This document shows positions 50,392 through 64,000 of a DNA stretch of 64,000 nt, in pieces; the stretch's first letter is position 1; each line of letters opens with the position of its first letter. The position numbers were made by a program, and so were the translations under genes. Origin of the DNA: Armatimonadetes bacterium UBA1398 (GTDB lineage Bacteria > Armatimonadota > Zipacnadia > UBA1398); assembly GCA_002305165.1 (NCBI GenBank), contig DBQI01000026.1:5398-69397 (forward strand). Reading direction: 5' to 3'. Below the pieces are notes generated by a model. That model saw only the letters and a program-made list of their open reading frames with translations. It had not been told where the DNA came from and did no database searches.

Positions 50392-52468
50392 CTACGAGGC
50401 TATCATCTCTCCCTGCTCCCCGATGGGAGCTGCCCATGGTCGCAGCGTCTCCGCCGTCTCGGCCATAGACCGTCGGACTGCGTCTGCGGTGAGTTCGCCG
50501 TGCCACAGCCCAAGGGCCGCACACAGCCGCCCAACTACTCGCAGACCCGGCATCGTGCATTCAATAGGTTCGTTTGTGGGGATCGACTGCTGGAGTCGTC
50601 CCTCGAAGTTCACGAAGGTGAACGGCTCCTCAGCGAAAGATGCCGAGGCGAGCTTCACCGTGGCGAGCTCGGATGTGGCATTGCGGTTGGTTCCCAGGTA
50701 CACAAGGCTGGAGAGTCCGCGAACGGCCTCCACGAGTTCAGGCGAGGCGTCGCATAGGGGATCGCCGCCAACCACGATCAGAGCGTTGAGGTCTCCCGCA
50801 AGCAGAGCCTGCCGCCAGGGCCGTGTCTCACCCGAACCGCGTGCGTCTGCGCGCGGGGAGCAGCCGACGAGACGCAGCCCCCTAGAGTTGGCCCCGCCCA
50901 CCAGAATGCCAGCCTTCACGGGCATCTTCCGGTCTGCCTGGAGTGACCGGGTGAGCCTGTCCAGCGCGCTTCGCGCAGGAGCGTACTCACCTGTGGGCAA
51001 GGCCCCCACGATCAGCGCCGGCCGCTTGGCGGCACTGATGCGCTCCACCAGCCCTCGCAACCACTCGGCTGGGATGCCGGTCTCGGTGGATACCCGCGTG
51101 AGTGTGCTCGCGTCCGCGGAGGCCACCAGATCGGCCATACCGTTCAGGAACGCCACCGCCTGCCCTGGCTGGAGATCCGCATGGTCCGTCGCGAGGCGCT
51201 TGAGGTCCGGCGCCCAATCGGGAGCCCCGATGGCAACCATACTCAGTTTGCCCTCCAAGGCCCGGCGGTTCAGGCGGAGCCACAGGATCGGCTGATCCTC
51301 GAGGATGTTGGCCGAGACCAGTATCACCGGGTCGGAGTACATGAGGTCCATGATGGTCCCAGGGAAGGGCCCCGCGAGATCGAAGTCGTCCTCCACGTAG
51401 ATGCTCGAGGCCTTCAGGCCATCACTCATGAACCGTTGGAGCAGGAAGCCCGTCTCGCAGGGCGTTGCCGGGTCGACCACCGCGGCGATGCTCTCGATGT
51501 CGGCGAGGGCCGACACGGTCCGCTCGACCGCCGTCTCCCATGGCACCCGGACACCGTCCACCTCGGGCGCAACCAGACGGTCATCCTGCACCCAGGCGTA
51601 GTCATACCGACCGCGATCACAGATCCAGTTGTCGTTGACGTAGTAGTTCGTGCGAGGCTGCACGCGGCAGAGGGTTCCGAGCCGTCCCCCTAGGGTCAGG
51701 CTGCATCCCACCGCGCAGTGCGGGCACACCCCGGGGGTGTCCGCCAGTTCCCACGGGCGCGCAGAGAATCGGAAGTACTCACTGGTCAGCGCGCCGACGG
51801 GGCAGAGGTCGATCGTGTTGCCCGCGAAGCGCGCCTTCCCTATAGGCTCCTTCAGGGCGGGCTCGATGACGCTGTGCCCACCGCGTTCATGGAACTCGAA
51901 GACCTGTTCGGAGGCCCACTCCGAGAGGAAGCGAGTACAACGGTAGCAGACGATGCAGCGCTCCTGATCGAGCACGATGGAGGCGCCGATGCGCCGTGCT
52001 TTGTCCTGGTTCAGGCGAGACTCCGTGAAGAGCTGGCGACCGGGGCCGCACAGCATCGTCATTTCCTGGAGTTCGCACTCGCCGCCCTTGTCGCAGATGG
52101 GGCAGTTGAGCGGGTGATTGGCGAGGATGAACTCAATAATGTTCGCTCGCCCCTGGAGCACCTTCTCGGAATCGGTGACGATCTTCATGCCCTCGGTGCA
52201 TTCCAGGGTGCAGGAGGTTTGCAGGGTCGGCATCTCTCGGTAGACGGGCTCGCCCGTCTCGTCGTCCTTCACCGGCTCGCCTGTCGCGCGATCGATAACG
52301 GGGTTGAATGCTTGGACCAGGCATACGCGGCAGGCGCCGAGCACGGATAGCGATCCGTGGTAGCAGAAGCGGGGAATGTGGATACCGATAGAGTCGGCGG
52401 CGGGCATCACGCGGGTGCCCTTGGGGACGGTGAGCTCCTGCCCATCGATCGTCAGCTTCACCATGCTG

Positions 52469-52479
<11 letters not shown>
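50392..52479 (-). CDS. nuoG: NADH-quinone oxidoreductase subunit G (75-kDa Fe-S subunit)
   Basis: N-terminal 2Fe-2S and 4Fe-4S cysteine clusters (CYHGSLSVLGACRVC; CPICDKGGECELQ; CIVCYRCTRF) plus a molybdopterin-oxidoreductase-like domain. The start is taken as the ATG at 52479 with AAGGAG 7 nt upstream; an alternative ATG lies at 52464. Confidence 0.9.
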
Positions 52480-53812
<1,333 letters not shown>

Positions 53813-53944
53813 ACGCGTCGACCTAACTTCCATGGGTGGAGAGCAGGTGCCCGTTCCCGTGCCTCGCAGGCACATGCACCTACCGAAAACCAGAGGCACC
53901 TATTCTGCCCTGACGGGTACCGTCCTCCCCTGCTTCGAACTTCG

Positions 53945-53958
53945 GCGGGCGTGCACGC
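53945..53958. promoter_or_regulatory. Perfect 14-bp palindrome GGGCGTGCACGCCC in the nuoF/prs divergent intergenic region (candidate operator)
   Basis: Read from the sequence; it lies 11 nt upstream of the candidate prs -35 element. Confidence 0.3.
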
Positions 53959-53968
53959 CCTCAGCCGA

Positions 53969-53998
53969 GCTTGTCCGGCCCGGCGGCGCCGTGCTATC
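53969..53998 (+). promoter_or_regulatory. Candidate sigma70-type promoter for prs: -35 TTGTCC, 18-nt spacer, extended -10 TGcTATCAT
   Basis: Hexamer matches read from the sequence (4/6 and 5/6 to consensus, plus a TG extension), 26 nt upstream of the prs ATG. Confidence 0.4.
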
Positions 53999-54023
53999 AT
54001 GCGGGGCCTGGAGCGATCCCCTG

Positions 54024-54962
54024 ATGAAGCTGTTCACGGGCAACGCCAACCGTAAACTAGCCGGAGACATCGCGGACTGCCTGGGCATTCCTCTGGGCGA
54101 CGCGGATGTTCGCCGTTTCTCCGATGGCGAGTGCAGAATCACTATCAAGGAGTCGGTGAGGGGCCGCGATGTGTTCATCGTGCAGCCCACGTGCTCTCCG
54201 ACGAACGATCATCTCGTCGAGCTGCTGATTATGCTGGACGCCTGTCGGAGAGCCTCGGCGTCGCGGATCACCTGCGTTATCCCTTACTACGGTTATGGGC
54301 GGCAGGACCGCAAATGCGGGCCGCGCGAGCCGATCGCGGCGAAACTCATCGCCGATATGCTCGTAACCGCGGGGGCGTCCAGGATCCTGTCGGTCGAGCT
54401 CCACGCCGATCAAATCATGGGTTTCTTCAACATTCCGGTGGATCAGCTGAGCGTGGGAGGCTTGTTCGCCGACTATGCACGCACCCATGTGTTCACGAAC
54501 GGGGGCACCGACGCCGTCGTCGTGAGTCCCGACGTCGGCGGCGTAGCAGCGGCCCGTCAGTTCGCGGATCGTCTGGGCACCCAACTCGTGATCGTGGCGA
54601 AGCGGAGGAAGCAGGCCAACGTCTCTGAGGCGATGGAAGTCATCGGCGATGTTGAAGGCAAGCTTTGCATTTTCCGCGACGATATGATAGATACCGGTGG
54701 TTCGATGGTCGAGGGAGCGTCCGCGCTCATGAAGCGTGGCGCTGGGCGCGTCATGGCCTTCGGCACCCATGCGGTGCTCTCTGGCCACGCGTCCAAGCGC
54801 CTGGCAGCCTCGTCTTTCGAGAAAGTGGTTGTCTCGGATACCATTCCGGTGCCGGCAGAGAAGCGCTTCCCGCAGCTTGACGTGCTGTCGGTAGCGCCTC
54901 TCTTGGCGTCGGGGATCCGATGCATCCACGAGGGCCGCTCCGTGAGTGGCCTCATACGCTAG
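54024..54962 (+). CDS. prs: Ribose-phosphate pyrophosphokinase
   Basis: The start is the internal ATG at 54024 (MKLFTGNANRKLA...). PRPP-binding motif (DMIDTGGSM). The ORF track extends upstream to 53832. Confidence 0.9.
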   Translation: MKLFTGNANRKLAGDIADCLGIPLGDADVRRFSDGECRITIKESVRGRDVFIVQPTCSPTNDHLVELLIMLDACRRASASRITCVIPYYGYGRQDRKCGPREPIAAKLIADMLVTAGASRILSVELHADQIMGFFNIPVDQLSVGGLFADYARTHVFTNGGTDAVVVSPDVGGVAAARQFADRLGTQLVIVAKRRKQANVSEAMEVIGDVEGKLCIFRDDMIDTGGSMVEGASALMKRGAGRVMAFGTHAVLSGHASKRLAASSFEKVVVSDTIPVPAEKRFPQLDVLSVAPLLASGIRCIHEGRSVSGLIR

Positions 54963-55012
54963 CGAGCAACCGAGGAAAACGGCGGCCGAATGCCGCGGAG
55001 GTCGAGGCTGAC

Positions 55013-55672
55013 ATGGCGAGACTGGAGCTGGAAGCGAAGGTACGGGACGAGTCTGAGCTGGGGAGCGGCCCGGCGGGCAGAATGCGCAAGGCTGGGGAGT
55101 TGCCGGCTATCGTCTACGGGCTTCACCGCGACTCGGTGGCCGTCAAGGTGGGGGAGCGTGACTTCGACGGTCTGCAGCGGCAGATGCGCGGAACCGCCGT
55201 GATCTACCTCCAGGTGGGCGGCATCGAGGAGCCGGTGCTGCTGAAGGAGATTCACAGGCATCCTATCAGCTTACAGCCCTACAACATCGACTTTCTCCGC
55301 GTTGACATGACGAAGCCGATTCAGGTTTCCGTCCAAGTTGTCATCACGGCTCGGCCCGCCGAGTTAGGGCCCGAAGAGGCCTTCACGCAGCCGACGGTCG
55401 AGGTGCAGGTAGAGAGTATGCCGGGGGACATTCCCCCCGTGATCGAGGTAGACGCAAGCGGGGTAACCTACGAGAAGTCCCTGTACGTGTCCGACTTGGA
55501 GGTCCCGAAAGGCGTCACGATCCTGACCGATCCAGAGACAGCGGTTGCCACGGTCGTTCGGGCCGCCCAGGTGCTCGTCGAAGAGCCCTCCGAGGAGGAG
55601 GCTGAGGGTGAGGGTCTTGGCGAGGTGGGCGAGGAGACCGAAGGCGGCGAGGCGCAGGAGGAGAGCGAGTAG
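55013..55672 (+). CDS. rplY: 50S ribosomal protein L25 / general stress protein Ctc, with acidic C-terminal tail
   Basis: The start is the internal ATG at 55013 (MARLELEAKVRDESELGSGPAGRMRKAGELPAIVYG...). L25/Ctc two-domain fold. E-rich tail. Confidence 0.85.
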   Translation: MARLELEAKVRDESELGSGPAGRMRKAGELPAIVYGLHRDSVAVKVGERDFDGLQRQMRGTAVIYLQVGGIEEPVLLKEIHRHPISLQPYNIDFLRVDMTKPIQVSVQVVITARPAELGPEEAFTQPTVEVQVESMPGDIPPVIEVDASGVTYEKSLYVSDLEVPKGVTILTDPETAVATVVRAAQVLVEEPSEEEAEGEGLGEVGEETEGGEAQEESE

Positions 55673-55772
55673 TAGCCCCAGCCACAGGGCGTGGCCTCAG
55701 GGTGGAGTTGCTTCCCTGAGGCCACCCACCAGTCCCGCCCATACCCATGAACCTCCGGAGGGGTGATTGGAC

Positions 55773-56240
55773 ATGTCCGGGCGGTCCCACACCCCGACCA
55801 TCCAGAACCGTCGCGCACGTCACGAGTACCACATTGACGACACCATCGAAGCGGGCCTGGTGCTACGCGGGTGTGAAGTCAAGTCAATACGCGCAGGCAA
55901 TGCTAGCCTCTCTGAGGCCTACGCGAAGATCGACGCGGGCGAGGTCTGGCTCGTGGGGATGTACGTGCAACCCTACCCTCAGGCAGGGGACAGCAACCCG
56001 GCCCCCACCCGCGACCGCAAGCTCCTGGTGAAGCGATCCGAGATCCGACGACTGCGCAGGGCCACGGAGCAGCGCGGGTACACCCTCGTCCCCCTGAAGC
56101 TCTACTTCCGCCGCGGACTAGCTAAGGTCGAGGTCGGGTTGTGCCGAGGGAAACGGCTACACGACAAGCGTGACGCCATCCGGGAGCGAGACCTGGACCG
56201 CCAGGCCCAGAGGGATCTAGTTGGGCGCGGCGACCAGTGA
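55773..56240 (+). CDS. smpB: SsrA-binding protein SmpB
   Basis: Conserved IQNRRARHEY...EAGLVLRGCEVKSIR...KLYFRRGLAKVEVGLCRGKRLHDKR. ATG at 55773 with GGAGGGG 9 nt upstream; the ORF track begins at a TTG at 55767. No tmRNA gene is detectable in the adjacent 278-bp spacer. Confidence 0.9.
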   Translation: MSGRSHTPTIQNRRARHEYHIDDTIEAGLVLRGCEVKSIRAGNASLSEAYAKIDAGEVWLVGMYVQPYPQAGDSNPAPTRDRKLLVKRSEIRRLRRATEQRGYTLVPLKLYFRRGLAKVEVGLCRGKRLHDKRDAIRERDLDRQAQRDLVGRGDQ

Positions 56241-56389
56241 CCCCGGCGGATGGCGGATAAGCCTCGGCGGCCAGCCAGCCCCTCTGACACTTGCTCCCTA
56301 CACTGGTGACGAGGCCCTACCGGCGGTTTGGACCTGCCAGCCGTCTCGGCGCCGGATGCGCGCCCGCCGCAGAGCGCGACTCACGCTGC

Positions 56390-56418
56390 TTGCCGCCGAC
56401 CGGCGGATAGTGTACAAA
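56390..56418 (+). promoter_or_regulatory. Candidate pstS promoter (-35 TTGCCG, 17-nt spacer, -10 TACAAA) followed by two GC-rich stem-loops (56435-56450 GCGCCC-ctgt-GGGCGC; 56472-56489 GCCGCC-cccaca-GGCGGC) in the 5' leader
   Basis: Hexamer and inverted-repeat matches read from the sequence; weak. Confidence 0.25.
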
Positions 56419-56517
56419 TGCATATCCCGGTGGATGCGCCCCTGTGGGCGCGTACCACGCTAACGCGCCCCGCCGCCCCCACAGGCGGCAACGCGGCAAT
56501 CCGTTAGGAGAAGGCGG

Positions 56518-57618
56518 ATGGCAATGAAGCACAGCGGGTCGTTTGTGTTGTGTACGACAGTGGTCCTCCTGGGTCTTGCGCTGGCACTCACGGTAGGCTG
56601 CTCGTCCAAGTCGGGCGACGGCGGCGGCGCGAACCTCCCCACATCTGCGGCGGGCGGCGGAGAGACGTCGGCAGCGGGCGCGGGAGGGGCCGTCAGTGGC
56701 GAGGTGCGCGTAGACGGTTCCAGCACCGTGTTCCCCATCACCGAGGCGGTCGCGGAGGAGTTCGGCATCGAGCACCCCGAAGTCCATGTGGCTGTGGCGT
56801 TCTCGGGCACTGGCGGGGGCATGAAGAAGCTCATCGCGAAGGAGATAGGGCTGGCCGGAGCCTCGCGCCCCATCAAGGCCGAGGAACTGGAGGCGACCAA
56901 GGCGGCTGGCGTGGAGTTCATCGAGTTGCCCGTGGCCTATGACGCACTCGCTGTTGTGGTTCATCCGGAGAACACATGGGCTGAGTCCCTAACCATCGAC
57001 GAACTGCGTATCGCATGGGAACCCGGAGCTCAGAATGTCGTGAAGAGCTGGTCGCAGATCCGCCCCGGCTTCCCCGATGAGCCCCTGGGCCTCTACGGTC
57101 CCGGCGTCGATTCGGGAACCTACGACTACTTCACGGAGGCAGTCTGCGGCGAGGAGGGCGCTAGCAGAGGCGACTTCCAGGCCAGCGAGGATGACAACGT
57201 GCTGGTTCAAGGCGTATCGAACGATCCCGCCGCTCTAGGGTTCTTCGGAATGGCCTACCTGACCCAGAATGAGGGCCTGGTCAAAGCGGTAGCCATAGAC
57301 GACGGCAACCCAGACAACGGCGACGGTCCACAAGCGCCCACCAAGGACAACGTGATCAATGGCGTGTACCGGCCGCTGTCACGTCCCCTGTTCATCTACG
57401 TGAACGTGGAAGCGGCGGCCGATCCGGCCGTGGACGCTTTCGTCCGCTTCTACCTCGACAACGCGGCGGAACTGGCGACGGAGGTCGGCTACGTGCCCCT
57501 TCCTGACAGTGTGTACGATCTCGTCAGGGCCCGCTATGCTGACAGAGTCGTCGGTTCCATGTTCGAGGGGCGGGGCTCCGTCACGGATGCCTCCCTCGAG
57601 GAGATGCTGGGCCAGTAG
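56518..57618 (+). CDS. pstS: Phosphate ABC transporter substrate-binding lipoprotein PstS
   Basis: Lipobox LTVGC. PstS/PBP-like motifs (DGSSTVFPI; GTGGG). Strong RBS AGGAGAAGG. Confidence 0.85.
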   Translation: MAMKHSGSFVLCTTVVLLGLALALTVGCSSKSGDGGGANLPTSAAGGGETSAAGAGGAVSGEVRVDGSSTVFPITEAVAEEFGIEHPEVHVAVAFSGTGGGMKKLIAKEIGLAGASRPIKAEELEATKAAGVEFIELPVAYDALAVVVHPENTWAESLTIDELRIAWEPGAQNVVKSWSQIRPGFPDEPLGLYGPGVDSGTYDYFTEAVCGEEGASRGDFQASEDDNVLVQGVSNDPAALGFFGMAYLTQNEGLVKAVAIDDGNPDNGDGPQAPTKDNVINGVYRPLSRPLFIYVNVEAAADPAVDAFVRFYLDNAAELATEVGYVPLPDSVYDLVRARYADRVVGSMFEGRGSVTDASLEEMLGQ

Positions 57619-58535
57619 TGGACCAACCCATTGAGAAGCGACGGGCGGGGCGCACCCTCCGAGGCGTCTTCGAGTGGCTGATCGAGCGTGGTCTCCAGGT
57701 GTGCGCCCTGCTCTCCGTCGCGACAACCATTGGCATCATTCTGGCGCTGCTGTTGCAGAGCGTTCCGTTCTTCCGCGAGGTATCGGTCAAGGACTTCCTC
57801 ACGGACAGGGAGTGGACGCCGCTCTTCGCCCAGAAGCACTTCGGCATCCTGCCCCTGGTCGCGGGCACGATGCTCGTCACGGCCATCGCCATGGCCGTGG
57901 CGTTGCCTGCGGGACTGATGATCGCGGTATACCTCAGCGAGTTCGCTCGACCACGCATTCGGCGGATGGTGAAGCCCGTTCTCGAGGTCCTGGCCGGGGT
58001 CCCCACCGTTGTCTACGGGTACTTCGCGCTCAGCTTCGTGACGCCGGCCCTGCAGACGTTTATCCCTGGCCTCAAGGGCTTCAACGCCCTCGGGGCCGGA
58101 CTCGTCATGGGGGTGATGGTGCTGCCGCTCGTCGCCTCACTGTCGGAGGATGCGCTGTACGCCGTGCCGCAGAGGTTGCGAGAGGCCTCCTACGCCCTGG
58201 GCTCGACGCGTCTGCAGATGGTGTTCAGGACCCTGATCCCCGCCGCGCTTTCAGGGATCGCCGCTTCCTTCATCCTCGGGGTATCCCGAGCGGTTGGCGA
58301 GACGATGATCGTCGCGATTGCGGCGGGGTCACAACCCACGCTGTCTCTGGACCCGCGAGTCCCCATACAGACCATGACCGGCTACATCGTGCAGATCAGC
58401 ATGGGGGACACCCCCCATGGCACCTTGGAGTACCACACGATCTTCGCTGTCGGACTGACGCTGTTCATCATGACTTTCACGCTGAACTGGGTGAGCATGG
58501 CGCTGCGGAACCGATATGAAAGGGCCTACCGATGA
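57618..58535 (+). CDS. pstC: Phosphate ABC transporter permease PstC
   Basis: GTG start overlapping the pstS stop (TAGTG). EAA-loop permease with PstC motifs. Confidence 0.9.
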   Translation: MDQPIEKRRAGRTLRGVFEWLIERGLQVCALLSVATTIGIILALLLQSVPFFREVSVKDFLTDREWTPLFAQKHFGILPLVAGTMLVTAIAMAVALPAGLMIAVYLSEFARPRIRRMVKPVLEVLAGVPTVVYGYFALSFVTPALQTFIPGLKGFNALGAGLVMGVMVLPLVASLSEDALYAVPQRLREASYALGSTRLQMVFRTLIPAALSGIAASFILGVSRAVGETMIVAIAAGSQPTLSLDPRVPIQTMTGYIVQISMGDTPHGTLEYHTIFAVGLTLFIMTFTLNWVSMALRNRYERAYR

Positions 58536-59461
58536 GTGAACCGTCGATAGGGCCGCAGGTCGGCGCCCCGCCGGCCACGGATATTCAGGGCAACGCGCGA
58601 GGCCGCGGATGGATCAAGGAACTGGGCTTCGAGGCCATCGCTCTCGCGACGGTCTGTGCGGCACTGCTGATGCTCGGCGTGCTGCTCGTGGACATCGTGC
58701 TCGACGGCTGGCCACGGCTCGGCATGGACTTCCTGAAGAGCCTACCGTCACGGAAGGCCGAGCAGGCTGGCATCTGGCCCGCCTTCGTGGGAAGCCTCTA
58801 CTTGATGGTTATCACAGCCTGTGTGAGCTTCCCCCTAGGGGTAGCGGCCGCGATCTATCTGGAGGAGTACGCTCCTCGTGGATGGCTTTCACGCTTCATC
58901 GAGCTGAACATCTCGAATCTCGCGGGCGTGCCGTCCATCGTCTACGGCCTCCTCGGCCTGGCTGTGTTCGTGCGAGCCTTCCAACTGGAGCGAAGCCTGA
59001 TCGCAGGCGGCCTGACTCTGTCCCTGCTGGTGTTGCCCGTTGTCATCATGTCGAGCAGAGAAGCGTTGAGGGCCGTGCCGCCGTACGTCCGCGATGCGTC
59101 CCTGGCGCTGGGTGCTACGAAGTGGCAGACGGTGCGTCGTCAGGTGCTGCCCCTCAGCCTTCCTGGGATCATGACCGGCACGATACTCGCCCTGAGCCGC
59201 GCCATCGGCGAGACGGCGCCCATCGTGATGATCGGCGCCTTTGGGTATATCAGCACTGTCCCCACTGGCCTCAAGTCGCCCTTCACGGCCCTGCCGATCC
59301 AGATCTACAACTGGGTCTCGAGACCCCATCGAGCGGCTGATACCGGCATCACCTTCCAGACAAACGCGGCGGCGGGCATTCTCGTGCTCCTCGCCATGCT
59401 CCTCACCCTGAACGCTGTAGCCATCTGGCTGAGGAACCGAGCCCAGAGGAGACTGAAGTGA
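58532..59461 (+). CDS. pstA: Phosphate ABC transporter permease PstA
   Basis: 4-nt overlap with pstC; PstA-type permease motifs. Confidence 0.9.
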
Positions 59462-60321
59462 CCGCACCATACCAAGAGCCCATAGCGGACTACCTGAGCG
59501 CCACGACCCAGCGTCCCGTGGACGATGGCCTCAATGGCGCTGGCGCCGAGGTGGCTGGCCCACCTACGGGGTGTAGGGTCCGCAGTGAGGACCTACACGT
59601 CTACTACGGCCCCGTTCACGCCCTGAAGGGCGTCACGATGGCGATCCCAGACAGGGACATCACCGCCCTGATCGGGCCGTCCGGCTGCGGCAAGTCGACC
59701 TTCTTGCGCTGCTTCAACCGGATGAATGATGTGATCCCCGATGTACGCGTCGAGGGGCGAGCGCTGCTCGGGGAGACGGACATCAACGGCCCCCGGATCG
59801 ATGTAGTGGCGCTGCGGAAGCGCGTGGGGATGGTCTTCCAGCAGCCGAACCCCTTCCCGATGTCCATCTATGACAACGTGGCCTACGGCCCTCGGATACA
59901 TGGCATCAGGAGGCGATCACGGCTCAACGAGATCGTGGAGGTCTCCCTACGCCGCGCGGCGCTGTGGGAGGAGGTCAAGGACAAGCTCCGAAAGTCAGCA
60001 TTCGACCTCTCGGGAGGGCAGCAGCAGCGCCTGTGCATTGCGCGGACACTCGCGGTCAAGCCGGAGGTCATCCTGATGGATGAGCCGTGTTCAGCGCTGG
60101 ATCCGCAGTCGACCTTCCGCATCGAGGACCTGATGGGCGAGTTGAAGGAGAGCTACACGGTCATCATCGTCACGCACAACATGCAGCAGGCCGCCCGAGT
60201 CTCCAGCATGACGGGGTTCTTCCTAATGGGCGAGCTGGTCGAGTTCGATGCGACTCGAAAGGTGTTCCAGAGCCCCGCGGACGAGCGCACAGAGAAGTAC
60301 GTGAGCGGCCGATTCGGCTAG
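59458..60321 (+). CDS. pstB: Phosphate import ATP-binding protein PstB
   Basis: Walker [10 protein letters not shown], signature LSGGQQQRL, Walker B ILMDEP. Confidence 0.9.
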
Positions 60322-60328
60322 AGGGCGG

Positions 60329-61006
60329 GTGAGGTCAATGGCTGCCAACAGCAGATCCCTCTTCAGCGCCGACCTGGCGCAACTCAAAGTGACCCTGCGG
60401 CAACTCGGTGAATGCGCGATCGAGATGCTCGAAGGGGCAACGGAGGCGCTCGTCAATCAGGACTACGACCTTGCGGAGCAGGTTCGCAAGCGGGATAACC
60501 TAGCCGACGCCCTCGACGAGAAGGTGGACGAGGACTGCGTTACGCTGCTCGCGCTCCAGGCGCCAGTCGCAAGAGACCTCCGCATCATTATGGGGTCAGC
60601 ACGCATCGCGACGGATCTCGAACGAATCGCCGACTACGCCAAAGACATCGCCAAGGTCGCTCGCAAGCTCAGCAGCGAGGACTACTTCTGGCCCCTCGAG
60701 GACATTCCGTCCATGGCCCACAGCTGTGCCGCCATGGGTCGGATGTCCTTGGCCGCTCTCGATGACGTGGATGAGGACATGGCGCGCAAGTGCGCGGGCA
60801 TGGATCACGAGGTCGATGCGCGATGGAAACTGGTGCGCGAGCAACTGATTCAGCACATGGAAGCGGACCCCAGCAGGGTACGCCAGGCCGCTCAGCTTCT
60901 GCTCGTCGCGCGCTACTTGGAGCGCATCGGTGATCATATCGTGAACGTCGCCGAGCGCGTCCACTACATGGCGACTGGTGAACTCCGTCGGCTCGACGTC
61001 GAGTGA
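60329..61006 (+). CDS. phoU: Phosphate signalling complex protein PhoU
   Basis: Two PhoU repeats (DxxxD motifs: ...ARIATDLERIADYA...; ...RYLERIGDHIVNVAE). The start may be the ATG at 60338. Confidence 0.85.
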   Translation: MRSMAANSRSLFSADLAQLKVTLRQLGECAIEMLEGATEALVNQDYDLAEQVRKRDNLADALDEKVDEDCVTLLALQAPVARDLRIIMGSARIATDLERIADYAKDIAKVARKLSSEDYFWPLEDIPSMAHSCAAMGRMSLAALDDVDEDMARKCAGMDHEVDARWKLVREQLIQHMEADPSRVRQAAQLLLVARYLERIGDHIVNVAERVHYMATGELRRLDVE

Positions 61007-61099
61007 CTCGAGGGCGGCATCGGGCGCCCCCACCCCTGCAGGACGGGCCACCGAACGCGCGAAACCATGGGCAGACCAAGCAGCCCATGGAGGTTGACT

Positions 61100-63859
61100 G
61101 TGACGACCCATCGCCGCGCCGTGTCATGGCCCCTGCTCGTAGCGATCCTGGCAGCCCTCGCATCCACATCGGAGGCTGAGCCGGTGCTGACCGACGTCGC
61201 ACTGACGCGGCTGGGCGCGTCAGCGACCGCAGAGTCGCAGTGCAGCGACCTCTACGGCGGCCCCAAGGCGATTGACGGAACCGTTGGGTACGGCTCCGTG
61301 GGCTGGTTCGCCGCTGACTCCGTCGCGCTGCCTTGCTCCCTGAACATCGACCTGGGTGCCACCCGCATCGTTCACAGCATCGTGCTCTACCAGGCAAGCT
61401 GGGGTGGCAGCATGTACCACAGCCGTGAAGTGCGCGTAGAGGGCCGCCTTGAGGGAGAGTGGGTGGGGGTGGGGGAGGCCGTCCTGCCCGACGTGAGCGA
61501 GCACAGGACGGAAGTGCGTCTCGGCTCGCCGATGGAACTTGACGCGGTGCGCATCGTAGTCCTGAGCGGGTACATCGAGCCGCAGATCTGCGGGCTCGCC
61601 GAGGTCGAGGTGCTGGCGTCCGGGGTACCCACCTGGGGCGAACCAAGGCTCCTGCTCGATGGAGAGCCCGCTCCCGACCTGGTGCATGGCACGTGTGGCC
61701 TGGCCATGGCGGCGCGCGCGAACGGCCCCCAGGTGCTTCTGTCCTCCGAGCCTCCGGCAGTGGCGGCCGTCCTCGACGGTGACGAGAGTGCGGCCATCGG
61801 TCTGGATCTTGCCAGCATTCCCGATGGAGCCGCCATCGAGTTCTCTGCCAGGAGGGTGTGGGGAGGGCCGGGCCGTGTGATCGTCAGCGGCTCGTGCGGT
61901 GGGGCCGTGGAGTCGGTCACCGACACCGCCTGGGTGATCCGCGTGCCTATCGGCGCCGGGGACGCGGTGCCCGTGACGATCGAGTTGCATGCCGACGGGC
62001 GGGCTACGGCCGTTGAACTACGCTCGCTTGCGCTGGTGCTCCCCGGCCTGCCGCCGCTCGCGATGTCCCCGACGCCATCTGGCCCTTCGCCCCTTGTGCT
62101 CCCTCCGCCCGCGGCTCCGGTCCTCCGGGAAGGCATGGAGCGGCTGCTTATCGAGTGGGATTGGCGGATGCAGGATGGCATTGCCACCCCACGCTTGCCA
62201 GTCAGCTACGAGCAGGCCTGTGACCGCTTGGTAGAGGGGGGCAACCGGCTCGCGAAGGGCCTACGGGGTGGATCGGATGCCCCGAAGGCCGCGCTCGCGG
62301 ACTGGCGTGAGGCAGTGGACGCCTGGAGGGGACTCCCGGAGAGCAGCCGCGGTGGAGCACTCGCCGAGCGTGCTTGGCTCGATCTCCACTGGACGCGGCG
62401 GTCGCTCATGTTGGCGCACCCACTCATGCCCCGTGAGCCCATCCTATTTGCGAAGCGGGTCCCTTCCGCGTTCAGTCACCAGCTCACCCAGTACTACGGC
62501 CGCTATGCTCGCCCTGGGGGAGGGATCTTCGTTCTGCCCGAGCCGGGCCGCTCCATGGCATGCCGCGACCTAACGGGCGGCCATATGCCTCTGGGAAGCT
62601 ACCTGCATCCCGAGGTCTCCTACGACGCTGATCGAGTCCTGTTCGCCTTCTGCGAGACCGACTCGGCGCCGACGGATAGCTTCGCCGGTAGCCCGGGCCA
62701 CTACTATCACCTGTATGAGATGCCACTGTCGGGAGGCGTGCCGAGCAGGCTGACCGAGGGCGCATTCGATGACTTCGCCCCACGGTACCTGCCCGGCGGG
62801 GACCTCATGTTCATCTCCACGAGGCGGCTCGGATGGCACCGCTGCGGCACCCCCGGCTGCGAGAACTACACCCTGACACGGTCAGGTCCCGACGGGAGCA
62901 TGGCACGCCCCGTGTCCTTCCACGAGACGCAGGAGTGGGATCCGGTCGTCCTTCACGACGGGCGGATCGCGTACACCCGCTGGGACTACGTCGACCGGCA
63001 CGCGGTCTACTACGAGCAGCTATGGTGGACCCATCCAGACGGCGGCAACCCCAGCGCCCTGTACGGCAATAACACTTTCAACCCCGTCGGAATCTGGGAG
63101 CCCCGGCCGGTACCGGGCTCCGACCTCATCATGGCCACGGCTGCGGCGCACCATGCTATGACGGCAGGATCCATCATCCTCGTAGACCCACGTCGGGGCG
63201 TGGACGGGCCCGAGCCCATCGTGCGCCTAACGCCGGACACCCCCTTCCCCGAGAGTGAGTCCGTGGTCTCCGGCACGTGGGTGGCTACCGCGGTGGGATG
63301 CGGCATCAGGACATCGGAGGAGCAGGAAAGGTGGCCGGGGCATTGCTACCGCTCGCCGTACCCGCTGTCCGAGGATCTCTTCCTCGCGTCCTACAGCTTC
63401 GAGCCCCTTGTTGGTGAACCGCACGCGAACTCACCGACGATGTTCGGCCTGTATCTCGTGGATACCAATGGAAACCGGGAGTTGCTCTATCGCGACCTGG
63501 CGATATCGAGCCTCTGGCCCATCCCCATTCAGTCACGTCTGCGGCCACCGCCGGTGGGTGCGGAGTTCGTGCCATCAGTATCTGGCGGTGACACGGGGAC
63601 CTTCCTGGTGCAGAACATCAACCGGAGCTCGGTGGCACTGCCCGATGAGCGGATCGCGGCGCTAAGGGTCGTCCAGCTAGTGCCGAAGTCCACGTCCGGG
63701 GCCAACAACCCCATGGTGGGGCTGGCAAACGCCTCGCCGGGCAAGCAGGTGCTGGGCACGGTACCCGTCTCGGACGATGGCTCCGCCTACTTCGAAGCGC
63801 CTGCCGGGATTCCCCTGGCGTTCCAGGCCTTGGACAGCCGGGGCTTGGCGGTTCAGGTG
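61100..63859 (+). CDS. Large secreted protein (919 aa) with N-terminal F5/8 type C (discoidin) domain and a ~650-aa beta-rich region; absent from the supplied ORF track
   Basis: Frame 2 is continuously open from the GTG at 61100 to the TGA at 63857-59, checked codon by codon; an alternative ATG lies at 61067. GGAGG sits 6 nt upstream of the GTG. Signal peptide MTTHRRAVSWPLLVAILAALASTSEA/EP. aa ~30-170 show discoidin hallmarks (AIDG, W...W, NIDLG..RIVHSIVLY, AVRIVVL). The remainder is rich in W/Y/G beta-strand motifs (DGRIAYTRWDYVD; FGLYLVDTNGNRELLY; DDGSAYFEAPAGIPLAFQALDSR). It is the same frame as phoU, separated from it by one stop. Confidence 0.6.
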
Positions 63860-64000
63860 ATGCGGAGCGTGACGTACCTTCAGCCCGGGCAGAACCTGGG
63901 CTGTATCGGGTGCCACGAGGACAGGACCGAGGCGCCCCCCAACCTCGGTCTCGCCGCCACAGGGCGCGAGCCCGCCAAGCTGCGCCCCGCCCCCGATGGC
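63859..64000 (+). pseudogene. +1-frame continuation of the discoidin-domain gene (or overlapping downstream ORF) containing a CxxCH haem-binding motif; runs off the window end
   Basis: The TGA of the upstream ORF overlaps an ATG (gTGATGcgg). Frame 1 is open from 63649 to the window end. It translates to ...GLAVQVMRSVTYLQPGQNLGCIGCHEDRTEAPPNLGLAAT..., which reads as a natural continuation of ...LAFQALDSR if one G is added or deleted in the CCGGGC run at ~63838-63843. Confidence 0.4.

Follow-up and report, generated by a model that had tools for sequence, protein, structure and literature searches.

The 3′ end of the 64,000-nucleotide stretch of Armatimonadetes bacterium UBA1398 DNA analysed here (contig DBQI01000026.1, positions 5,398 to 69,397; hereafter the window, whose own numbering is used throughout) raises the question of whether its last gene is a broken reading frame or a whole one, and of what kind of protein that gene specifies. 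An earlier note had read it as a secreted discoidin-domain protein of ~919 amino acids (aa) that stops at a TGA overlapping an ATG (TGATG) beside a run of G, with the +1 frame carrying on into a c-type haem attachment motif, CxxCH. We found instead that positions 61100-64000 hold codons 1-967 of a single gene of ~1106 codons, which is intact and maintained by selection. Taken as a whole, we consider it highly probable that this is a single window-truncated gene for an exported, sugar-binding, two-haem member of a very large family distantly related to the alpha subunit of hydrazine synthase (HzsA). The features on which the question of the reading frame turns are as follows.

61089..61093, + strand: Shine-Dalgarno-like GGAGG, 6 nucleotides (nt) before the GTG at 61100, as read from the sequence.
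61100..64000, + strand: 5′ part of the HzsA-like coding sequence (codons 1-967 of ~1106), in one frame, intact, cut by the window end.
63840..63843, + strand: GGGG run, of equal length in the related contigs L001 and L002, the DNA alignment showing substitutions only.
63858..63860, + strand: TGA out of frame with the gene (position modulo 3 of 0, versus 2 for the gene frame).

We translated the three forward frames and read positions 60800-64000 directly. The frame shared by the ATG at 61067 and the GTG at 61100 runs for 978 codons from 61067 to the last base of the window with zero stops. Its sole stop after 60900 is a TGA at 61004, upstream of the gene, and 61007-64000 is stop-free, whereas the two other forward frames contain 25 and 23 stops. 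This translation confirmed the observation that a long open frame from 61067 or 61100 was missing from the supplied list of open reading frames (ORFs), because the list omits ORFs that are still open where the window ends, as this one is at the 3′ side. The GTG at 61100 is the start that carries the Shine-Dalgarno-like motif; no such motif was read upstream of the alternative ATG at 61067. The closest relative listed (P0001) begins MTTHR, which corresponds to the GTG at 61100 of the window gene. At the suspected shift site, the string GGTGATG spans 63856-63862 and is read in the gene frame as GTG ATG, or Val-Met, with the ATG at 63860 in the gene's own frame. The peptide that had been quoted as joining two frames is in fact a single-frame translation, ...AFQALDSR and then GLAVQVMRSV... 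(GLAVQVMRSVTYLQPGQNLGCIGCHEDRTEAPPN...), and the apparent stop arose from a one-base miscount.

Comparison with independent assemblies led to the same answer. A protein search that found more than 452 relatives put P0001 first among the matches listed, with 98% identity and a length of 1106 aa. Several metagenome contigs, each from an assembly of its own, encode it, and gene calls on four independent contigs give one product of 1106 aa. Contig L001 aligned to window positions 51100-64000 without a gap, at 99.16% identity over 12,901 nt. Within the gene the two differ at 51 nucleotides; 34 of these differences are synonymous, 17 are non-synonymous, and third codon positions account for 34. Because these differences are mostly synonymous and fall mostly at third positions, they point to purifying selection and not to a decaying pseudogene. 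Homologues of 950-1120 aa align end to end, and all 55 other sequences in our family alignment are collinear through the suspected shift site. Beyond position 64000, the sequence of the orthologue leads us to expect ~420 further nt encoding ...ARPLSYPILVQPVLDRNCVSCHG..., followed by a stop.

Two explanations had been offered for the supposed break, and the evidence above bears on both. According to one, a homopolymer indel at the G-run, either a sequencing error or genuine pseudogenisation, would interrupt a longer ORF whose +1 frame holds the haem motif. A TGA does exist at 63858 within GGTGATG, but the reading of it as a stop goes back to a hand count only; it lies out of the gene frame, the translation is continuous, one Pfam match spans the site in a single frame, and neither L001 nor L002 shows a gap there. 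According to the other, TGATG would couple two ORFs translationally, a 919-aa discoidin and propeller protein and a small cytochrome. Nothing more than the TGATG string speaks for this arrangement, whereas the TGA is out of frame and four independent contigs are called as single 1106-aa products. We regard the indel as next to impossible, and the coupled ORFs as equally so. Frameshift, pseudogene and coupled ORFs were thus rejected by frame arithmetic together with the gapless L001 and L002 alignments.

We then considered the architecture of the protein with a model of P0001 built by AlphaFold2 (AF2) on the A2 alignment of 56 family members (mean predicted local distance difference test score, pLDDT, 84.7; predicted template modelling score, pTM, 0.83). 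The segments, predicted from sequence matches and from this model, are listed below in order.

61100..61177, + strand: predicted Sec signal peptide, 26 aa, with cleavage after SEA; by eye, a basic n-region (HRR), a core PLLVAILAALA and small residues at -3/-1.
61223..61594, + strand: F5/8 type C (discoidin) domain of the carbohydrate-binding module 32 type (CBM32; Pfam PF00754), a beta-sandwich at residues ~40-175 in the AF2 model.
61637..62044, + strand: all-beta sandwich-like domain, residues ~180-315 (~135 aa), with strands only and pLDDT ~90 in the AF2 model.
62129..62413, + strand: four-helix segment in the AF2 secondary structure, residues ~344-438 (~95 aa), starting with the conserved LIEWDWRMQDGI.
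62441..63649, + strand: six-bladed TolB-type beta-propeller, residues ~448-850 (~400 aa) with ~24 strands, bearing most of the invariant motifs.
63662..63919, + strand: HZS_alpha (hydrazine synthase alpha middle) domain, Pfam PF18582, model residues 855-940.
63902..63916, + strand: first c-type haem attachment motif, CIGCH; family consensus C-x-G-C-H-E-x-R.

As judged from the sequence and the model, the order is therefore Sec signal peptide, CBM32, beta-sandwich, four-helix segment, propeller, HZS_alpha domain with its haem site, and a C-terminal haem domain. Several parts of the earlier description were borne out. The N-terminus is Sec-like by eye, and the signal peptide appears in the model as a helix at residues 10-22 with low pLDDT. 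Searches with profile hidden Markov models (HMMs) recovered both expected domains above their cut-offs. The discoidin match is marginal, scoring 29.0 bits against a gathering cut-off of 28.2, with relatives reaching 132 bits; the modelled fold at this position is the CBM32 beta-sandwich. The HZS_alpha match, which bears out the suggested likeness to the HzsA middle domain, is strong, with 73.9 bits (cut-off 26.6) and E 1.6e-20, and extends over model positions 6-98 of 98 (residues 866-951 counted from the ATG at 61067), and it is this match that crosses the suspected frameshift site as a single stretch. The ~650 aa of propeller-like repeats that had been proposed held only in part: there is a six-bladed propeller fold of the TolB/PD40 type of ~400 aa, and the rest is made up of the beta-sandwich and the helical bundle. 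The all-beta domain at ~180-315 gave no Pfam match and also occurs in relatives without CBM32, for example P0051. In the four-helix segment, D354, W355, D359 and G360 are invariant in the 56-sequence alignment. After the HZS_alpha domain, residues 940-1106 of the model form a mostly helical C-terminal domain. The overall proposal of a secreted protein with a discoidin domain, a propeller and an HzsA-like c-type haem site, of no assigned function, is thus backed by HMM, alignment and fold.

The CxxCH motif named in the earlier note is CIGCH, which is present in all 56 relatives aligned; C935, G937, C938, H939, E940 and R942 are invariant in 56/56 sequences. No other CxxCH occurs in any open stretch of 100 aa or longer in the six frames of the window. 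A second motif, CVSCH, falls outside the window, corresponds to residues 985-989 of P0001 and occurs in 55/55 full-length sequences. The core of the protein is ~50% identical across phyla and includes dozens of invariant polar residues in the propeller; seven propeller motifs and both CxxCH motifs are invariant or nearly so across phyla. The family motifs are SHQLTQYYGRYARPGGG, STRRxGWHRCGxPGCENY, HETQEWD, TRWDYVDR, GNNTFNPVG, ATAAAHHAMTAGS, FPESE and RWPGHCYRSPYPLSE. Since the haem and propeller motifs are near-invariant across phyla at this level of identity, their conservation points to catalysis.

Both haem motifs have counterparts in HzsA. CIGCH aligns with the CSGCH of HzsA haem alpha-I, and CVSCH with CAMCH at the haem alpha-II position. 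When the P0001 model was compared with the Protein Data Bank (PDB) by Foldseek, the top match was HzsA (5c2v_A; E 6e-24; 803 aligned columns; TM score 0.59 normalised to HzsA; 17% identity), and TolB was next best at ~1e-9. A family profile searched against PDB sequences likewise found HzsA (E 1.7e-14), with collinear propeller, middle and C-terminal segments. Like HzsA of Kuenenia stuttgartiensis (kuste2861; PDB 5C2V/5C2W, chain A), the window protein would thus have a propeller, a middle CxxCH domain and a C-terminal CxxCH domain in the same order; it differs in having ~440 extra N-terminal residues that comprise the CBM32, the beta-sandwich and the helical segment. By profile and predicted fold, then, the protein from the propeller onward is a full-length yet distant homologue of HzsA.

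That HzsA is the best and sole strong PDB match, with both haem motifs present, might suggest a genuine hydrazine synthase alpha, and with it a cryptic anammox-type nitrogen chemistry in a bacterium outside Brocadiia. However, the identity to HzsA is just 17%, and the equivalog model hydrazine_alpha (NCBIfam NF052339) gave 28.2 bits against a cut-off of 800. In HzsA, the iron of haem alpha-I, the catalytic haem, is ligated by Tyr591, four residues past the CxxCH histidine, and this histidine instead joins Cys303 in binding zinc (Dietl et al. 2015, as summarised in PMC12758564). We found no equivalent of Tyr591: the window protein has Thr at +4, family members have Thr, Leu, Ser or Val there, and only 1 of the 56 sequences contains a Tyr anywhere in the 11 residues that follow the CxxCH histidine. 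Because this tyrosine is absent, haem 1 is likely canonical and His-ligated, unlike that of HzsA. For the Cys303 region, no sequence alignment of the HzsA segment around chain residue 276 to the family was obtained, and a 61-aa stretch of Kuenenia HzsA searched against a collection of 5.8 billion proteins returned one 94-aa fragment only. Cys303 and other key HzsA residues have been reported not to be conserved in other HzsA homologues (Hagglund et al. 2025; PMC12758564). Neither an HzsB/HzsC-like gene nor another ORF with CxxCH was found in the 64-kb window or beside the gene in related contigs. A propeller plus CCP/MauG-type dihaem family was not among the 25 most frequent families of the 112 immediate neighbours examined. 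Among the matches listed, the nearest genomes are metagenome-assembled genomes (MAGs) of Armatimonadia, at 63% identity at best, and not Brocadiia; the window's own host is no anammox bacterium either. On this sequence evidence the window protein does not make hydrazine, a conclusion that Hagglund et al. reached likewise for other HzsA homologues (PMC12758564), and we consider a genuine hydrazine synthase alpha at this locus very improbable.

The earlier note had described the architecture as uncommon, which proved not to be the case. A scan of one genome per GTDB species gave at least 598 confirmed loci, distributed over Armatimonadota, Planctomycetota, Verrucomicrobiota, Kiritimatiellia, Lentisphaerota and Hydrogenedentota, nearly all of them in MAGs among the matches listed. 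An exhaustive profile search of 1.84 billion representatives clustered at 50% identity recovered 6,586 proteins at E<=1e-10, of which 2,307 reached E<=1e-30. The N-terminal module varies among relatives and may be CBM32, NPCBM, an alpha/beta-hydrolase or esterase, or none; more distant members carry Laminin_G_3, PA14/PKD, CBM_AftD, a gluconolactonase-like domain or an FGE-sulfatase domain. Individual cases illustrate this variation. An alpha/beta-hydrolase (S9/esterase/BD-FAE-like) stands at the N-terminus in place of the CBM in P0126 and in the locus L075:227-3778 (+ strand), an FGE-sulfatase domain at the C-terminus in P0156, and an SMP-30/gluconolactonase-like region in P0128. In two further distant members, P0242 and P0207, the HzsA-like core is fused to a propeller and a CCP_MauG/RoxA-like dihaem module, giving a single chain that resembles alpha plus betagamma. 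The dihaem module is N-terminal in P0242 and C-terminal in P0207, the latter also having PKD and PA14. These fusions bear on the origin of the hydrazine synthase complex.

More than 600 structural relatives of HzsA carry the annotation 'HZS_alpha domain-containing protein', none with an experimentally confirmed function (Hagglund et al. 2025; PMC12758564). Our literature search for functional studies of PF18582, HZS_alpha or hydrazine synthase homologues outside anammox found none, and that paper was the only relevant one. The HzsA homologues of its clades I-IV, from hosts that include Aquisphaera, Thermogutta, Novipirellula, Syntrophobacter and Opitutus, resemble the window protein in being distant, in having a canonical haem-1 site and in lacking Tyr591, and some retain the second haem site (PMC12758564). 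They were, however, chosen for co-location with a fused HzsBC-like gene (propeller plus CCP/MauG-type dihaem; PMC12758564), whereas the window gene is a solitary one, flanked by phoU and a convergent lexA, and its product includes a CBM32. Other known proteins are less similar. TolB/PD40 six-bladed propellers contain neither haem nor CBM, begin with an N-terminal domain of another kind, and are 12-15% identical. The CBM32 modules of glycoside hydrolases such as NanJ, NagH and NagJ of C. perfringens belong to hydrolytic enzymes, whereas here the module sits on a haem protein and matches Pfam barely above threshold. The pyranose dehydrogenase of Coprinopsis cinerea, which combines a pyrroloquinoline quinone (PQQ) domain of the sGDH/AA12 type with a cytochrome and a CBM, offers only a generic propeller similarity, an analogy and not a membership; in contrast to such PQQ sugar dehydrogenases, nothing in the window protein points to PQQ, and its haems are c-type and arranged as in HzsA.

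The surroundings of the gene on its upstream side are given by one further feature.

56518..61006, + strand: complete phosphate-uptake operon pstS-pstC-pstA-pstB-phoU immediately upstream, from Pfam matches on five ORFs; phoU ends 93 nt before the gene.

The order pst-phoU-gene is the same in L001-L004, and in L005 the Armatimonadia homologue of 63% identity likewise has a PhoU gene ahead of it (L005:2786-3463). Apart from that MAG, only the window's own lineage showed this linkage, which was not seen in other phyla. No terminator-like site was found in 60300-61400, and a promoter and terminator scan of the interval between phoU and the gene found nothing either way. Co-regulation with the Pho regulon is possible. 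Farther upstream, smpB lies ~4.9 kb from the HzsA-like gene in L001, corresponding to about 55.8 kb in the window. On the other side of the gene in the orthologous contigs, lexA (LexA_DNA_bind plus Peptidase_S24; L001:13311-13937, - strand) converges on it so that the 3′ ends overlap by 11 nt, and beyond lexA follows a trio of MoxR-AAA, DUF58 and transglutaminase genes. No tRNA, tmRNA or Rfam family was found at the gathering threshold in the whole 64 kb. Long antisense ORFs of 256-325 aa cover the 5′ part of the gene (60669-61646, 61220-61990 and 61387-62187, all on the - strand), and the comparison of neighbours described below grouped equivalent antisense or off-frame ORFs from many loci. 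They are most likely not genes but are expected from a conserved high-GC gene.

To look beyond this lineage, six-frame ORFs within up to 8 kb of the homologue at 82 loci were compared by all-against-all BLAST, and the 112 immediate neighbours were searched with Pfam. The commonest immediate neighbours were alpha/beta-hydrolases (7 of 112). Within 8 kb, Gfo/Idh/MocA-like genes, counted by eye, occurred in 13 loci and sulfatase-like genes in 8. Such recurrences are at best a weak hint of glycan metabolism.

What, then, might the protein do? It is likely to act as a haem oxidoreductase of the periplasm or cell surface that is held on glycans. We lean towards a redox enzyme with haem 1 as its active site; that its substrate is a carbohydrate or a glycan-borne group is a more tentative suggestion, which we hold at clearly less than even chances. 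The link to glycans comes from relatives that swap or supplement CBM32 with other carbohydrate-binding or glycan-processing modules. In the mechanism that we propose, the unfolded protein would be exported through Sec, and the two haems would be attached covalently in the periplasm. Haem 1, with its predicted His ligation, would probably lie between the middle domain and the propeller face that bears the invariant His, Glu, Asp and Cys motifs and would form the catalytic site, a location that by analogy would be that of the catalytic haem alpha-I in HzsA. Haem 2 would probably be a relay that takes electrons from a separate soluble carrier or passes them to it. The CBM32 would probably tether the enzyme to a galactose-type glycan, either the substrate polymer or the cell's own envelope.

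An alternative is that the protein is a non-catalytic, TolB-like binding or scaffold propeller at the surface, whose two haems serve only electron transfer, for example as part of an extracellular or periplasmic conduit, or sensing. The closest folds of the propeller are indeed binding proteins, TolB and YWTD receptors, and lectin-type N-terminal modules would suit surface binding; the same holds for the lack of a conserved enzymatic partner or operon. However, His, Glu, Asp, Arg and Cys residues of the propeller that stay invariant across phyla at ~50% identity look more like an active site, two haems are few for a conduit, and in HzsA the homologous haem has a catalytic role (Dietl et al. 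2015, as summarised in PMC12758564). We therefore consider a purely binding or electron-conducting role unlikely, though not negligible.

Several points nevertheless weigh against the reading of the gene product as an exported, glycan-tethered haem enzyme. Exported proteins of these phyla often bear CBM-type modules, and the one here may do no more than anchor the protein. No conserved operon partner emerged from the 82 loci and 112 immediate neighbours, so that no operon backs any particular substrate, and the recurrence of Gfo/Idh/MocA and sulfatase genes is possibly due to chance, because these families are abundant in these phyla. The signal peptide, MTTHRRAVSWPLLVAILAALASTSEA, cut before EPV, was read by eye. 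The last 139 residues lie outside the window and are taken from the 98% identical orthologue P0001; within them, H1059 or M1076 are candidates for the distal ligand of haem 2. Finally, the siting of the invariant propeller motifs beside haem 1 is putative.

With these points in mind, we return to the redox enzyme and propose, as a speculation that we think rather improbable as it stands, that the stand-alone, CBM-bearing branch of HzsA-like proteins is an unrecognised class of exported c-type-haem redox enzymes acting on glycans or glycan-borne groups, that is, a haem-c auxiliary activity family. This class would take in the window gene together with thousands of relatives from PVC bacteria, Armatimonadota and Hydrogenedentota; its active site would be made up of the invariant propeller motifs and a canonically His-ligated haem 1, with haem 2 as the electron relay.

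Taken together, these results make the window gene an ordinary, intact member of a Pfam-catalogued family that has already been discussed in the literature on anammox evolution. The frameshift into a haem motif, which had made the gene look unusual, does not exist, and the interest lies in the family and not in the locus. The family is notable for being very large and conserved across phyla, for its two c-type haems, for being the closest known relative of hydrazine synthase alpha and for its repeated fusions to glycan modules. Knowing its function would close a sizeable gap in the annotation of phyla that degrade polysaccharides, and would bear on the evolution of hydrazine synthase. If the proposal for the CBM-bearing class were true, that class would show the kind of ancestral enzyme that gave rise to hydrazine synthase alpha.

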